Source of the DNA: a virus | DNA: 40,170 bases | Reading direction: 5' to 3' (one strand) | IMG/VR virus record: IMGVR_UViG_3300009506_000006 | Coordinates: 1 to 40,170 of that record | Part shown: positions 13,446-26,649 of the stretch, in pieces | How the letters are laid out: each line of letters opens with the position of its first letter | Position numbering within the stretch: position 1 is the first letter of the stretch | The notes under the pieces: model-generated | What the model saw: the letters and a program-made list of their open reading frames with translations, nothing else | Told to the model about the DNA's origin: nothing | The model's database searches: none | Program-made: the position numbers and the translations under genes

Positions 13446-13723
13446 TCACTATCCTTATTGGTTGCAGAGTTTTTAACTTTATTGGCTGCAGTAAACGCTT
13501 TACCAATCAGTTCGATGCCATCAGCCGTGTTGCGCAGTTCTCGGATGAGACTATCCAGACGATTATAACCATAAGCTTCGACTGGACATTCTTTAGGAAG
13601 ACGGCTGTTGATTAGCTTGACAATTTCATCACGGACCTTGTATGAATTTACTGGTTCTTGGTCACCGTCTTCCCATCCCCACTTTGATCGCATTTGTTCG
13701 TGGACGTATATTAGATTCATCAA
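13442..13723 (-). CDS. Hypothetical protein
   Basis: 93 aa, ATGA-coupled. Confidence 0.65.
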   Translation of the reverse strand: MMNLIYVHEQMRSKWGWEDGDQEPVNSYKVRDEIVKLINSRLPKECPVEAYGYNRLDSLIRELRNTADGIELIGKAFTAANKVKNSATNKDSE

Positions 13724-14952
13724 CCTTTCTCCGGATGAATTCCGATCACTTCACCGAACGGCGGCGGACCGTATGACAACTGTTGGCTGGTATTAATCCA
13801 CATAACCGGATATTCCGGATACACATCCGGATAACTGTCACATTCCATATCCGTGAACACCACTAAGAATTTCGGTGGTTCGATCCATGTCTCGATTTCT
13901 TCGAATACACATCTGTAATTTGTGCCTCCGCGACCTTGAGCCTCCAAACAAATCGGTAAATCAGCGTGTGTATGTACCTTAATTTCACCTTGGATCTGCG
14001 TGTCGAACTGTATCTCGTGCAGCTCCAGGTTTGGAAATCTTTCAAGAATCTCGTTAATTTCACCGGCAGCTTGCGCCAATTCGTCTTTGTAGACTGAACC
14101 ACTGCAGTCGGTTGCCCATACGCAACGCCCGATTTCGATCCCATCGATAATTGGCATGTAGATGCCTTGACCCATATATCTGCGGTTCGGCATTTTCCAA
14201 GAGTAGTCATTGTTGGCAGATTTTTCAGCAAATTCATTGAGCAGCTGCAGCCAGTCAACTTTGGGTTGAAGAATTTCGTCGATCAGCTCTTTGATAGAGC
14301 CTGGCAGCTTACCCATCGATTTAGCGCCTTGAGCTGCCGATACCATTTTGCGTGTCCAGTCTTGCGCAATACGCTGCATTTCTGCCTGGCTGGCCGGAGT
14401 GCCGCTTTTACCTTCATTGTTTTCCTTGCCGCCTGCCGGATAATCACGCACCTCGCCAAGTAATCCTTTAGACCCTCCTGTTTGATCCTTGCCGCCACCT
14501 TTTCCATCGCTTCCGCCAAAACTGCATTCAATTTTAATCGGCTCCGGCAGCAGGTTGTAATTCTCTTCAGCACTGTTAACACCGAAATTTTCATCTCCTG
14601 GCATATGACCCGGCAACAGACAGCCTTCCGGCAGATATATGTTAGCTTCTTTTAATATCCAGTTGATTGGATAATCACAGGCTACGTTCCATTTCAGCTG
14701 ATGCCGATCGCCACGCCGTGCCATATGACCCAGCCCGCAATGCATGGCTTCATGCGCTAGGACGGCTACTATGTGCGGCTGGTTAAGTCCTGCAATCCAT
14801 GCCGGATTATAGCCAAGATATACGCCATCAGTCCATGCTGTCGGGCACTCCGGGTCTTCTATGAATTTGAGATGCATGGCTAATGTGGCAAAGAACGGAT
14901 GATCCAGAATGAGCGCAGTTTTGGCTTTTGCCATTTTAGTTTTATAATCCAT
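13720..14952 (-). CDS. Metallopeptidase-like / VWA-like protein (DUF2201 type)
   Basis: TAWTDG, HEAMH (HExxH), WNVACD; C-terminal DCSGS, GRGGT, VFTD MIDAS-like motifs. Confidence 0.88.
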   Translation of the reverse strand: MDYKTKMAKAKTALILDHPFFATLAMHLKFIEDPECPTAWTDGVYLGYNPAWIAGLNQPHIVAVLAHEAMHCGLGHMARRGDRHQLKWNVACDYPINWILKEANIYLPEGCLLPGHMPGDENFGVNSAEENYNLLPEPIKIECSFGGSDGKGGGKDQTGGSKGLLGEVRDYPAGGKENNEGKSGTPASQAEMQRIAQDWTRKMVSAAQGAKSMGKLPGSIKELIDEILQPKVDWLQLLNEFAEKSANNDYSWKMPNRRYMGQGIYMPIIDGIEIGRCVWATDCSGSVYKDELAQAAGEINEILERFPNLELHEIQFDTQIQGEIKVHTHADLPICLEAQGRGGTNYRCVFEEIETWIEPPKFLVVFTDMECDSYPDVYPEYPVMWINTSQQLSYGPPPFGEVIGIHPEKG

Positions 14953-14993
14953 GCAGTTTCCTTTCAATATTTCGTTATAGAACAACAATAATT

Positions 14994-16501: not shown

Positions 16502-17593
16502 TCAAATCAGGACGTCAGAGTACAGCCCGGCCCATTGGATGAATTCTTCGGTTTCCGCGACTTCCTCATTGTAATGCACGGAATCCCGGATCATCATAAC
16601 ACCGAATTCCTTTGGCAAATATTTGCTGATTTCCACCAGGGCTGCGAATGTTTTCTTGGATGCCCGCTTAGCTAACGCACCGCACAACGCGTAGAGCACA
16701 CTGGGTTTGTCATGCGGTATTTGATCTTGGGATTTTTCCGGATGTTTGAGCATCAAGTCGATATTGGGCAGAGATCGATAGACGTCAAGGAATGCCATGA
16801 ATTCCACAGCGCAAGCAGGCCCGGCACAGGCCGAATAGGTTTGAAATTCAGTGTCGAGCGCTGGCTTGCATGACAGCTCCTTGGCCATCATGTGAATAGT
16901 TCTTGGACACGGAGCATTTTCCATGTTCTGTTCGCGGGCTTTGTCGTCTTTAGTGCCTGCATCGTCCTTGAACAGCATGTCGGGCTTGAATCTTACGAAC
17001 CCGGCAATTTCAGCTGGCAGATCCTGCTTGAAATACCATTGCAGCCAGTCATCCAGCAACGGCTGCAGTTCGTAAATCAGACAGCGACCAAGCAATGGCT
17101 TGAGAATTGTGCCGACCGCGGCCCGGTCCTGTTTACGATTGGTGGCCAGCATGAAGACTACCTTGTCGTTGTTGATCTTGTGCTGTCCAATCTGGCCGCC
17201 CCAGATCAACTGCATCAACGCGGCTTGCACAGCCGGCATAGCCTGGCCTGCATCATCGAAGAACACGCCGGTCAATTTGCTGACATTAATTAGAGTGCGT
17301 AATTCATTGAATGGAATGAAATCCGCACGGCCTTCGACAATCCATGGCAGTCCCTTGAAATCGGTGGGATCCGAAATAACTGGATGCATGACCAACAGAT
17401 CGGCGCCGTAGCTTTTGAACGCTTGTTTGATCAGGTCGGTTTTGCCGACACCCGGAGCACCCTTGAACAGCAAATTATGCCGCATGTGCGACGGCCGATC
17501 CAGATTAGCATGGATCAACTGAGTCATTTGCTTGGGACCGATTGTAGGTGCCAGGTCCTTGATGTTTTCCATCTTCTTCGCTGCCATTGACAC
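16502..17593 (-). CDS. MoxR-like AAA+ ATPase
   Basis: Walker A GAPGVGKT, Walker B variant FFDD, ATNR sensor, PCPR motif. Confidence 0.9.
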   Translation of the reverse strand: MSMAAKKMENIKDLAPTIGPKQMTQLIHANLDRPSHMRHNLLFKGAPGVGKTDLIKQAFKSYGADLLVMHPVISDPTDFKGLPWIVEGRADFIPFNELRTLINVSKLTGVFFDDAGQAMPAVQAALMQLIWGGQIGQHKINNDKVVFMLATNRKQDRAAVGTILKPLLGRCLIYELQPLLDDWLQWYFKQDLPAEIAGFVRFKPDMLFKDDAGTKDDKAREQNMENAPCPRTIHMMAKELSCKPALDTEFQTYSACAGPACAVEFMAFLDVYRSLPNIDLMLKHPEKSQDQIPHDKPSVLYALCGALAKRASKKTFAALVEISKYLPKEFGVMMIRDSVHYNEEVAETEEFIQWAGLYSDVLI

Positions 17594-20248: not shown

Positions 20249-20608
20249 TTAGTTTTGTTTATTTTCAGGAATCCAACGTGCCTGGTTATTACGTATTTCT
20301 ATTTTGAGATTTTGAGGAGCCATTGCCTCATTGACTTTTTGCTCCAACGTTTTACCCTCTATGATCTCAAGCGCCTTGCTATTTAACCATAATTTGAACC
20401 GATTGCTAGCGACCAGACGTTCAAGTGCTAACCTACGGTTTTGTGTTTGGCTACGCTCGCTGCGCGACTCGCCGACAGCTTTTGATTCTTTATGAATAAT
20501 GCGCACACCGGTTTCAACCTTATTTTGATGCTGCCCACCCGGTCCGCCTGAACGAAATGTTTGAATAACAAAATCTTTTTTAGTTATTGAGAATATATGC
20601 TGTTTCAT
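20249..20608 (-). CDS. Peptide chain release factor-like peptidyl-tRNA hydrolase (RF-1/GGQ domain; ArfB/PrfH-like)
   Basis: FRSGGPGGQHQNKVETGVRIIH and RSQTQNRRLA motifs. Confidence 0.9.
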   Translation of the reverse strand: MKQHIFSITKKDFVIQTFRSGGPGGQHQNKVETGVRIIHKESKAVGESRSERSQTQNRRLALERLVASNRFKLWLNSKALEIIEGKTLEQKVNEAMAPQNLKIEIRNNQARWIPENKQN

Positions 20609-20778
20609 GTTTACTCTTAGTAAGATTTTTTTTGACAGTCTGTCAAGCAGAATTCGCGAATGAATAGAATTTATATTGTTTTATCAATTTACTTGTGGTA
20701 AGCTTGCGACTGTCTTTTATAACACAAAACGGGATTTGGTGTTGTAACCCCAAACCCCGCTTTTACGGAGTGATACAT

Positions 20779-20958
20779 ATGGCTTCTAAAAAGAAATGGA
20801 TCCCACGCAATCTCAAGCGCGGAGCCTTGACTGCCATGGCCAAGCGTTCCGGCATGAGTATCTCTGCTTACTGCGCCAAGGGCAATTTATCCACACTGGC
20901 CAAGCGCCGCTGAAATCTTGCCAAGACTTTCCGCAGGATGCGGAAGAAACGCAGTTAG
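20779..20958 (+). CDS. Small basic protein with in-frame TGA at codon 45 (candidate selenoprotein or readthrough)
   Basis: SD GGAG; MASKKKWIPRNLKRGALTAMAKRSGMSISAYCAKGNLSTLAKRR[TGA]NLAKTFRRMRKKRS[TAG]; hairpin 20929-20945. Confidence 0.65.
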
Positions 20959-21302
20959 TATCGCTTAAATTTAATACCCTTTATTCTTAAAAGCGTTCTA
21001 TACGCTAAAGACAAGCTCTTGCTGCATTCAAATTTTGTTCTTCGTTCATAGGTAAAATAATCTGGACAGCCAGCGTCATCTAAGGCTTTTGGACACGCAT
21101 TACTTTCATAGTGATGTGATGCTTGGTCACAGCCACAGTGCCGACAAATATCTATCAGACTGTTGTCTTGTATGTGTTGCAATTCATCGGACCATAACTC
21201 AAGATAGTGCTTACTCATCAATATTGGATGGATTGCTAATTTCTTACGATGATTGTCCAATCTTCGTGGCATACCTTCAGGTACCTTAGTCGCACCAGGC
21301 AC
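20955..21302 (-). CDS. Zn-binding protein, paralog family C (start uncertain)
   Basis: CRHCGC...H...CP...AYRTLLRIKG. Confidence 0.7.
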   Translation of the reverse strand: MPGATKVPEGMPRRLDNHRKKLAIHPILMSKHYLELWSDELQHIQDNSLIDICRHCGCDQASHHYESNACPKALDDAGCPDYFTYERRTKFECSKSLSLAYRTLLRIKGIKFKRY

Positions 21303-21335
21303 AGCACGCAGACATCATTGCGAAGCTGTGTAATC

Positions 21336-21542
21336 TCAGTGTCGGTTTCCGCGGTTTGAATTAGAACATGCGTATCGCATATCCTGCAAGGATTGATTGG
21401 CGGCGTCATGTCTGGCCAGTATCTCCATAGCGTGTTTGAATTCATCCATGTCCGGCGTAACCAGCTGTTCGATAATAATCAGCCGGCATAAAGCGTAGAG
21501 CGCGTTGCGCAGCTCTGCGCAGGATTTGCATCTGTTAGCCAT
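21336..21542 (-). CDS. Hypothetical protein
   Basis: 68 aa, start overlaps upstream stop. Confidence 0.5.
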   Translation of the reverse strand: MANRCKSCAELRNALYALCRLIIIEQLVTPDMDEFKHAMEILARHDAANQSLQDMRYACSNSNRGNRH

Positions 21543-21858
21543 TTTTGATTCTTTGTACCCCTTGCAGACGCAGGTACACCCGGTATGCCGTTGTCAGGTC
21601 TTCATCCAGCTTGAAATGGGTCCTGCGCCAGCATTTCGGATCTTTATCGCTCATTGGCAGACATCCGTCTTTATCTAGATCTTTAGGACACCGGTTAGCC
21701 CCGCATCCTATATTGTGCGCGTACTTGTCCATGCCGCAATTTTTGCAGATAGCCGTATAATCTTCAAACTCAAAATCATTTTTCTTGGCTATGGATGTGT
21801 TTAAAAACGTTTTCGTTATATAAAACAGATTTGTTAACGCTGGATGTATTTTCTTCAT
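21535..21858 (-). CDS. Zn-binding protein, paralog family C
   Basis: CKNCGM...H...CP...AYRVYLRLQG; start MKKIHP at ATGA overlap. Confidence 0.75.
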   Translation of the reverse strand: MKKIHPALTNLFYITKTFLNTSIAKKNDFEFEDYTAICKNCGMDKYAHNIGCGANRCPKDLDKDGCLPMSDKDPKCWRRTHFKLDEDLTTAYRVYLRLQGVQRIKNG

Positions 21859-21996
21859 GGCGTTACTTGCATGTAGCTTACGGCTATGACAACACCGGCC
21901 ACAAATCCAATGAACATCGCTATGCACGCCACAGCGATCGTCCAATTTAGCCAGTTATTGTAGCGGCGTGACGTGACGTGTTTCTCGAGCCAGCCT

Positions 21997-22338
21997 TCAA
22001 CGATCCCGTGGGTTATCAGGGATTTCCACTGCTGCTTGCCTAGTTTGCCATTCAAATTGAATCCCTTTCATGCGAAGATAAGACCGGTATGCCGTGGTCA
22101 TTGCGTCGCTGCGTTTGTACAATTTCAACTTGTCTGGTTCCTCCGGTATCTCCATCATTGGTGCACCGAATTCATTCAGACTTGTTGGACAAGTTTCTGA
22201 ATTATCTCCGATTCCATGCGCTGCTCGATCACAGCCACACCGACCGCAGACTTCAGACCACTCCGGATCTTCCTCTAGACCACGGCGCAGTGCACCCAGG
22301 CATTGCGCCGTGAACAGCCTTTTGTTTATTCCCGCCAT
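21997..22338 (-). CDS. Zn-binding protein, paralog family C
   Basis: CGRCGC...H...CP...AYRSYLRMKG. Confidence 0.78.
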   Translation of the reverse strand: MAGINKRLFTAQCLGALRRGLEEDPEWSEVCGRCGCDRAAHGIGDNSETCPTSLNEFGAPMMEIPEEPDKLKLYKRSDAMTTAYRSYLRMKGIQFEWQTRQAAVEIPDNPRDR

Positions 22339-25887: not shown

Positions 25888-26649
25888 CTATAATTTGCGT
25901 ATCTTATACGTTACGGGAGCAGCAGCGTACTTCCGTACTTGCTCCAGTGACAACTCCACTCCCCGAAGTTCCTTGGGCAATTCGGGCAGCGGGACTTCCG
26001 TGAAGCTCTCGCACAGACAGGAAAGCGAATGCGGCAGGACACCGCACACGCGCTTACCTGTGACGTCGATACCGCTGGCGTGCTCGATAACCTGCGTAGT
26101 TTCATTGGCGAGCCCGGTTTCCCGAAGGTATTCAACTAGCCCGGGATGCCGGGTAACGACCAATTCGACTGCAGGCCGTTGACTGGTTATGGCGGCTTTG
26201 GCAGCTGCCTGGGCCTTTACTATCACCCGGGCTGCTTCCGCCTCGGAAAGCAACTGCTTTAGCATCGAGAGTGAGGTTTCGGTTTCGATGCTGAAAGACG
26301 ATTGATTTCCGAAGAACGTTCCGAAAGCCAGATACCGCGGCGAGCCATTGATCAGGTAGACCGGGCGCTTACCGTTGGTACCCCGCCAAAGTGTGTAAGT
26401 AGGACTGTCCGGGTTAGTGCCCTCTGGATACTGAGTTAACGTCCGACCATGGAGAGCAGCCACATCGACGAGCGCCCTGACTGGGGCGTTGTGGTTGATC
26501 TGGCGATTGGCGAGCGCCTTGATGCAGGCCTCGCCGATAACTGTGAAAAAGGCGTCCGAAGCGTCCTGCGCTCCGGGGTCTTTGTAGTTAATTCCGATAT
26601 TATGCAGGACACCGGACGCTGCGGATGCAGTCGGAAGGTACAGCTTCAT
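25888..26649 (-). CDS. Two-domain protein with C-terminal Csx16-like domain
   Basis: VVTRHPG...IEH...GVLP..L...LPKELRGVELSLEQ matches the Csx16 (VVA1548) motif pattern; SD AAGGAG. Confidence 0.75.
   Translation of the reverse strand: MKLYLPTASAASGVLHNIGINYKDPGAQDASDAFFTVIGEACIKALANRQINHNAPVRALVDVAALHGRTLTQYPEGTNPDSPTYTLWRGTNGKRPVYLINGSPRYLAFGTFFGNQSSFSIETETSLSMLKQLLSEAEAARVIVKAQAAAKAAITSQRPAVELVVTRHPGLVEYLRETGLANETTQVIEHASGIDVTGKRVCGVLPHSLSCLCESFTEVPLPELPKELRGVELSLEQVRKYAAAPVTYKIRKL

Follow-up and report, generated by a model that had tools for sequence, protein, structure and literature searches.

A small phage gene with an in-frame UGA and a downstream SECIS-like hairpin points to a phage-borne family of predicted selenoproteins

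This study focused on a short gene of an uncultured phage, the reading frame of which is interrupted by a TGA codon (20911-13) and then continues for a further 14 codons. The UGA is very probably a selenocysteine (Sec) codon, and the gene a member of a new selenoprotein family carried by phages and decoded by the SelB machinery of the host. In the mechanism proposed, host SelB and Sec-tRNA would decode this UGA as Sec, guided by a hairpin at 20928-46, and the product would be a basic phage protein of 59 residues, not the 44-residue protein called by annotation pipelines. The inserted residue would be Sec, with selA, selB, selC and selD all provided by the host, and Cys32 and Sec45 may then pair, probably as a selenenylsulfide (or as a shared metal site), to link the second and third helices. 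Sec decoding had been put forward in an earlier note made from the sequence alone, and the interpretation is supported by the alignment of the TGA with Cys codons in homologs, by a conserved tail, by the hairpin, and by confirmation of the sequence itself.

The window, meaning the whole stretch of 40,170 nt that was analysed, comprises the first 40 kb of a virus record of 107,865 bp (G000) that is rated complete. The phage comes from sediment, and the sequencing runs containing its sequence are labelled as marine sediment and soil metagenomes, with no RNA run among those listed. Genes for a P22-type coat protein, large terminase, SSB, RNase H and a helicase are also present on the window, where the gene under study sits alone on the plus strand amid minus-strand accessory genes. 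A blastn search of the locus and 6 kb of nearby sequence against a phage collection gave no match. The frame runs from ATG at 20779 through MASKKKWIPRNLKRGALTAMAKRSGMSISAYCAKGNLSTLAKRR to the TGA, and from there through NLAKTFRRMRKKRS to a TAG (20956-58). Homologs share an MA(S)KK..W N-terminus, which places the start at this ATG rather than at GTG 20695 of the ORF list. In public protein sets the gene is entered as a 44-aa product (P0001). The features of the locus are as follows.

20767..20770, plus strand: ribosome-binding site GGAG, 8 nt upstream of the ATG, as read from the sequence
20779..20958, plus strand: gene for a basic protein of 59 residues (44 codons, UGA, 14 codons, TAG)
20872..20874, plus strand: TGC encoding Cys32, the partner of residue 45, kept in 14/14 distinct TGA forms of the family
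20911..20913, plus strand: in-frame TGA, the predicted Sec codon (residue 45), aligned with TGC/TGT in homologs
20914..20955, plus strand: the 14 codons past the UGA (NLAKTFRRMRKKRS), translated according to pN/pS and placed by AF2 in a predicted C-terminal helix
20918..20954, plus strand: possible lower stem, UUGC (20918-21) with GCAG (20951-54), seen in the MFE fold only
20928..20946, plus strand: predicted SECIS upper hairpin UUUCCGCA-GGA-UGCGGAAG (bSECIS rules; synonymous recoding, p=0.004), made up of UUUCCGCA at 20928-35, the loop GGA at 20936-38 and UGCGGAAG at 20939-46

The open frame described in the earlier note was confirmed: the TGA is in frame, 14 codons follow it, and the TAG at 20956-58 shares bases with the TAA (20955-57) that ends the convergent minus-strand ORF 20955-21302. 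A misread base at the TGA had been named there as a way in which the interpretation could fail. Positions 20911-13 are covered with 0 differences by contigs of four runs from four studies, one run being a possible origin of the virus record itself, so the TGA, recovered in these independent assemblies, is not a sequencing error. A promoter and terminator scan of 20400-21400 identified no terminator, and nothing that could convincingly serve the gene as a promoter.

An initial protein search recovered five relatives, three of which carry Cys exactly at the TGA position (..KRRCNLAKTL.., ..KRQCNLAKT..), and one of which is a 44-aa protein that stops where the ORF of the window does. Scans of viral and metagenomic DNA extended the family to 119 loci (the window, L002-L082 and L090-L126), in which the codon aligned with the TGA specifies Cys in 90 (TGC in 65, TGT in 17, and 8 read as Cys from translations), is TGA in 14, and is of another kind in 15, these being hydrophobic (11 with Ile, Val or Ala codons and 4 read as Ala from translations); neither TAA nor TAG occurred. 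Targeted scans then added L128, L135-L139, L141 and L142 as TGA forms, giving 22 TGA loci of 138 examined, representing 14 distinct sequences, a yield enriched for TGA forms by design since these later scans used TGA-form queries; the first scan, made without that aim, had found one TGA form in 80 loci. TAA and TAG remained absent from the aligned codon in all 138 loci. The 14 distinct TGA forms share about 45-90% identity with one another and contain no frameshift and no second early stop. The check proposed at the outset, that homologs should show Cys or TGA at position 45, was thus borne out, with Cys in 90/119 loci and TGA in 22 loci.

The family is large, as a profile search of a protein database gave 3,601 clusters (90% identity) at E <= 0.001; a protein atlas queried with a natural Cys homolog (P0004) showed only viral clusters annotated as 'hypothetical protein'. 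Because the sequences of family alignment A3 were too varied for scanning genomes, A4 was used in its place and gave 8 loci. A scan with a DNA pattern for further TGA forms found only the L070 contig and L082, and six pattern matches (L084-L089) were discarded as chance occurrences outside the family. Three forms without Cys (L129, L130 and L131) were found in MAGs of Thermoguttaceae and Pirellulales, on large contigs of chromosomal origin; they are probably prophages, and would offer a clue to the host for that branch alone.

Every one of the 14 distinct TGA forms stays in frame for 10-15 codons past the TGA, and their tails have in common the pattern x-[LA]-x-[KR]-T-[LF]. When close pairs of TGA forms were compared, pN/pS past the UGA was 0.03/0.25, 0.07/0.26, 0.10/0.52, 0.06/0.38 and 0/0.18. 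Judged from these substitution patterns, the tail after the UGA is under purifying selection, i.e. it is translated, and the conservation beyond the TGA that had been suggested as a check was found both in the open frame (14/14 forms) and in a pN far below pS. In L070, L105 and L116 the gene terminates at a second TGA, 14 codons downstream, so that the first UGA is read through while the second terminates, and recoding depends on position.

Genome-wide reassignment of UGA (codes 4 or 25) was rejected for G000, in which the codon otherwise serves as a regular stop. Among 143 crude ORF calls in this record the stops were TAA in 66, TGA in 58 and TAG in 19, and ORF sizes barely change when TGA is read as sense (code 4). 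The tRNAs of G000 are Gly-GCC, Pro-UGG and two near 57.1 kb, none with a UCA anticodon. The latter two are tRNA-like genes on the minus strand at 57100-57267 of G000, outside the window, which were detected by Infernal (50.9 bits with the tRNA model, 30.4 bits with the tRNA-Sec model) and were unreported by ARAGORN; read off the alignment, they would be Glu-UUC and Tyr-GUA. A crude scan of G000 for other genes combining a UGA with a hairpin gave nine hits, of which only the focal gene resembles a coding frame.

The hairpin that follows the UGA was compared with the bacterial SECIS (bSECIS) model, as set out in the available text of a 2026 review of prokaryotic selenoproteomes (PMC13188914), which specifies an apical loop of 3-9 nt, an upper stem of 4-16 bp, a G in the first two loop positions that is usually followed by G or U, a distance of 16-37 nt from UGA to loop, and an MFE of <= -7.5 kcal/mol. 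The TTCCGC-AGGAT-GCGGAA hairpin (20929-45) pointed out in the earlier note is real, and extends to UUUCCGCA-GGA-UGCGGAAG (20928-46), a perfect stem of 8 bp with loop GGA, the stem beginning 14 nt past the UGA and the loop at 22 nt. Its dG is -8.7, and the 45-50 nt that follow the UGA fold with an MFE of -11.2 kcal/mol; the hairpin agrees with the bSECIS model, as described in that text, in every particular. The possible bulged U mentioned in the note is absent. In the fdhF element of E. coli, as described in the available text of PMC8659212, the upper stem-loop lies 11 nt from the UGA and has a bulged U17 and loop residues G23/U24, whereas the stem of the window lies at 14 nt, has no bulge, and carries its loop G residues at 26-27, which is 3-4 nt further. 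By that description, the likeness to fdhF that had been claimed therefore holds as a general resemblance, but not for the distance of the loop G from the UGA.

A hairpin of this kind is uncommon in the phage genome, as only 1.2% of the 4,051 TGA trinucleotides of G000 (both strands) precede a SECIS-rule hairpin as stable as that of the window; at dG <= -4 this background is 9.4%. When a qualifying hairpin was defined by the bSECIS rules, a perfect stem of at least 4 bp and dG <= -4, one was present in 12/14 distinct TGA forms, as against 1/64 distinct Cys forms and 2/15 other forms. An MFE of <= -7.5 over 50 nt was likewise found in 12/14 TGA forms. The TGA forms L100 and L116 have imperfect stems only, and were scored as misses. 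The loops of the 12 hairpins are GGA (three), GGUU (three), AGGUUG (two), GUC, AGGU, GGC and GGU, and their stems are of nine different sequences, stem levels 1-7 showing between 2 and 5 standard pair types, in a table made with our own scripts and anchored on the predicted hairpins, towards which it leans. Conservation of the hairpin had been another of the checks proposed, and a G early in the loop was found in 12/14 TGA forms, the structure being nearly absent from the Cys forms.

Two codon phases are seen for the hairpin, the loop of which begins either 17 nt or 21-22 nt past the UGA. When the 14-residue tail of the window was recoded synonymously 1,000 times, 0.4% of the recodings folded as stably as the native sequence (p=0.004), and the same test gave p<0.05 in 10/14 and p<0.1 in 12/14 TGA forms, compared with p<0.05 in 7/64 Cys forms and 1/15 other forms. 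The presence of two codon phases and the greater strength of the native hairpins relative to synonymous recodings show that the peptide sequence does not by itself account for the hairpin. Other measures gave smaller signals. Dinucleotide-shuffle z-scores differed only modestly (mean -0.77 in TGA forms vs -0.14, p=0.025), and GC content was higher in TGA forms (0.51 vs 0.38). As the TGA forms are mutually related, pooled p-values overstate independence. Four window-like sequences contained one compensatory pair, a result equalled by 133/500 shuffles, and formal covariation was not significant. With a threshold of E <= 10, neither the 13 TGA-form loci searched nor positions 20700-21050 of the window gave a SECIS match in Rfam, which contains few bacterial SECIS models. 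A covariance model (R1) built from the four window-like hairpins proved too sequence-specific, recovering the seed sequences and, with weak scores, L139, L137 and L138, but missing the other TGA forms. MAFFT aligned the hairpin segments by sequence and not by structure.

The residue at position 45 does not vary alone. In an alignment of 65 sequences, positions 32 and 45 were occupied by Cys and Cys in 44, by Cys and UGA in nine, and by neither in 12 (A/A, M/I, V/I, M/V, I/I or E/I), and there were no mixed pairs. Such perfect co-variation is compatible with two residues in contact that act jointly. A pairing of Sec with the upstream Cys had already been suggested, and fits this co-occurrence (53 with both, 12 with neither, 0 mixed). 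An AF2 model made with the family alignment has helices at 14-24, 28-33 and 39-58 (mean pLDDT 75.4); Cys32 falls where helix 2 ends, and residue 45 within helix 3. Foldseek found nothing in the PDB at E <= 0.001 with this model, and a wide fold search with VIA gave a best Z of 4.4 and no clear fold match.

Two weak domain resemblances were considered and rejected, both under the Pfam gathering score: a NikA-like ribbon-helix-helix in 12/65 members (best E 9.4e-5; the protein of the window scored 16.2-16.8 bits, cut-off 27) and Fusello_VP2_Capsid in 10/65 members (best E 1.5e-4). Of 29 family members, 21 matched phrog_20603 and 14 matched phrog_15706 (best E 1.5e-13 and 1.6e-7, respectively; protein of the window against phrog_20603, E 0.0031), PHROGs that have no annotated function and nothing marking them as selenoproteins. 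Cys forms are found directly after the portal gene (L054 and L037) or, in L005, one ORF past the portal gene and before the major head gene. The contexts of TGA forms vary, and include positions after terminase and methyltransferase genes, or convergent with a polymerase exonuclease gene. We infer a small, nucleic-acid-binding or head-associated protein, in which helices 2 and 3 would be tied by a Cys-Sec bond or a shared metal.

Other genes of the window were also noted. The product of the divergent neighbour (20249-20608, minus strand of the window) is a stand-alone release-factor GGQ domain of 119 aa (Pfam RF-1, E 2.5e-18), the NCBIfam matches of which (prfB, prfH, prfA and ArfB) are all far under their cut-offs; it is curious that a peptidyl-tRNA hydrolase-like phage gene adjoins a UGA-recoded gene. 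A comparison of the neighbours of six other TGA-form loci (16 ORFs) with PHROGs gave no release-factor match. Three diverged paralogs on the minus strand (20955-21302, 21535-21945 and 21997-22338) carry a C-x2-C-G-x-D-x3-H ... C-P motif, and share a C-terminal A-Y-R-x-Y/L-L-R-x-x-G. Further along the window, at 25891-26649 (minus strand), the phage accessory region encodes a protein of 253 aa in which a Cas_VVA1548 domain was recognised (PF09652, E 1.7e-14). In the minus-strand block, at 13723-14988 and 16505-17593 (both minus), a weak AAA-ATPase match lies close to a DUF2201 metallopeptidase/VWA-like protein (E 1.8e-51).

Searches for the trans-acting components of Sec insertion were made in the phage records and in one cellular bin. 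No tRNA-Sec was found in G000 or in five other phage records with TGA forms, and no selB in G000, which counts against the Sec reading. If the UGA is read as Sec, the gene would depend on the selenium machinery of the host, as the earlier note had proposed. Just one TGA-form contig, L128 (5.7 kb), lies in a cellular bin, a Dehalococcoidia MAG (G006). The top tRNA-Sec match of this MAG is a tRNA-Ser(tga), there were 0 hits to selA and 0 to SelB-wing_3, the top selB match (197.7 bits, cut-off 242) is on a 404-aa ORF, and the top selD match reached 79.6 bits (cut-off 125). These results argue against the Sec reading if the bin is correct. The binning of a short phage contig is weak, however, mis-binning being common for such contigs, and the completeness of this MAG is not stated.

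Alternative explanations of the UGA differ in how much of this evidence they accommodate. Programmed read-through without Sec, in which a near-cognate tRNA (Trp or Cys) would decode the UGA at low frequency, aided by the hairpin, to give both 44- and 59-residue products, has a precedent in the coat-gene UGA of phage Q-beta, which is read through. It would account for translation of the tail and for a stable hairpin past the UGA, and it suits the failure to find Sec machinery in any record with a TGA form. However, it leaves unexplained that no stop other than TGA is used and that, in different branches of the family, it invariably takes the place of the second Cys, or why Cys32 is retained in 14/14 TGA forms when members lacking the second Cys also lack the first; nor does it account for loops that begin with G, GG or GU, as in SelB-binding elements. 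We consider it unlikely. An alternative with the same cis evidence as Sec is that the UGA and hairpin serve a Sec-like system that inserts Cys, using a tRNA-Cys with UCA anticodon and a SelB-like factor. Such systems have come to light in work on natural Sec recoding, and one would suit hosts without selA or selD, but they are rare, and G006 gave no SelB-like match above cut-off. We regard this explanation as very unlikely.

A further alternative, that the TGA is a true stop, the product a protein of 44 residues, and the remainder a decaying remnant or pseudogene, has in its favour the 44-aa proteins produced by gene callers (P0001 and P0002) and the frequent use of TGA as a stop in G000. It is nonetheless the least credible of those considered, and highly improbable, as it is at odds with 14 distinct TGA forms that have acquired neither a frameshift nor a second early stop, with a pN lower than pS past the TGA, with the lack of TAA or TAG at this codon in 138 loci, and with a choice of codons that appears selected for keeping the hairpin. 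Decoding of the UGA as Sec by host SelB machinery is the explanation preferred here.

The Cys forms provide indications of how the Sec state may have arisen. A clade of 17 Cys sequences with the tail NLAKTLKGFNK has a weaker hairpin, AGACCC-UNAA-GGGUUU, with no loop G, situated 16-17 nt past the Cys codon, which is the position of the 17-nt class of TGA forms (e.g., L011, L012, L016, L036, L043 and L051), and in some members of the clade this hairpin is stronger than in synonymous recodings. Its occurrence in Cys forms weighs somewhat against the Sec reading. Counterparts among the Sec forms are AAACCCU-GGC/GGU-AGGGUUU (L103 and L141) and GACCCU-AGGU-AGGGUC (L090), in which the loop codon has changed from the Lys of the Cys clade to Ala, Val or Gly. 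The hairpin of the Cys clade may thus be the relic of a former SECIS, or else a hairpin already present that would need only loop G residues to become a SECIS. On a tree built from these short sequences by maximum likelihood, five changes are needed to explain the Sec state, but well-supported branches force only one, so that repeated switching is suggested and not shown. The protein of the window is nearest to that of L090 (66% identity), yet the two have different hairpin classes, which hints at separate origins.

A tentative proposal, to which we give rather less than even weight, is that phages of sediment and groundwater bacteria have repeatedly switched from Cys to Sec through one or two changes to G in the loop of an existing hairpin. 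The switch would affect a conserved Cys of a small head-module or DNA-binding protein, and would give a Cys-Sec staple, a selenenylsulfide that holds in the reducing cell, along with a dependence on, and a marker of, Sec-using hosts. On this proposal, it would be a first family of bacteriophage selenoproteins.

The locus resembles bacterial genes with a SECIS inside the ORF in that the UGA lies at the Cys position of homologs, with an intragenic stem-loop directly downstream, and in that a G (then G or U) opens a small apical loop at a spacing of 17-22 nt. It differs from bacterial selenoproteins in being carried by a phage and in specifying a basic, helical protein of 55-60 residues that belongs to no known family and is not an oxidoreductase. 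Among viruses, the poxviruses molluscum contagiosum and fowlpox are named, in the available text of a 2021 recoding review (PMC8310308), as having acquired a selenoprotein gene, and the glutathione peroxidase selenoproteins of poxviruses are similarly virus-encoded and require host Sec machinery. The poxvirus proteins are captured cellular enzymes with a eukaryotic SECIS, whereas the family described here is phage-specific and its predicted SECIS is of bacterial type. The words phage, virus and viral are absent from the available text of the 2026 prokaryotic review (PMC13188914), and ocean data, as reported in the accessible part of PMC9402790, include few or no viral sequences in selenoprotein families. 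No report of a phage selenoprotein was found in the literature that could be searched, most subscription journals lying outside its scope, so that this absence is not proof; searches of the same literature with exact phrases for phage or viral selenoproteins led to work on eukaryotic viruses only. The mechanism involving UGA, SECIS and SelB is known; the novelty would lie in a selenoprotein family specific to phages, in which Sec, Cys and no-Cys variants occur naturally and the path to a SECIS can be seen.

Catalogues of selenoproteins are based on cellular genomes, and gene callers shorten genes of this kind, as seen in the 44-aa products P0001 and P0002 of public sets. Dependence of a phage gene on SelB and Sec-tRNA would link phage fitness to the selenium metabolism of the host and would provide a sequence-level clue to host range. 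With Sec, Cys and no-Cys forms side by side, the family is a compact natural system for studying the origins of selenoproteins, and shows a plausible path from a coding hairpin to a SECIS.
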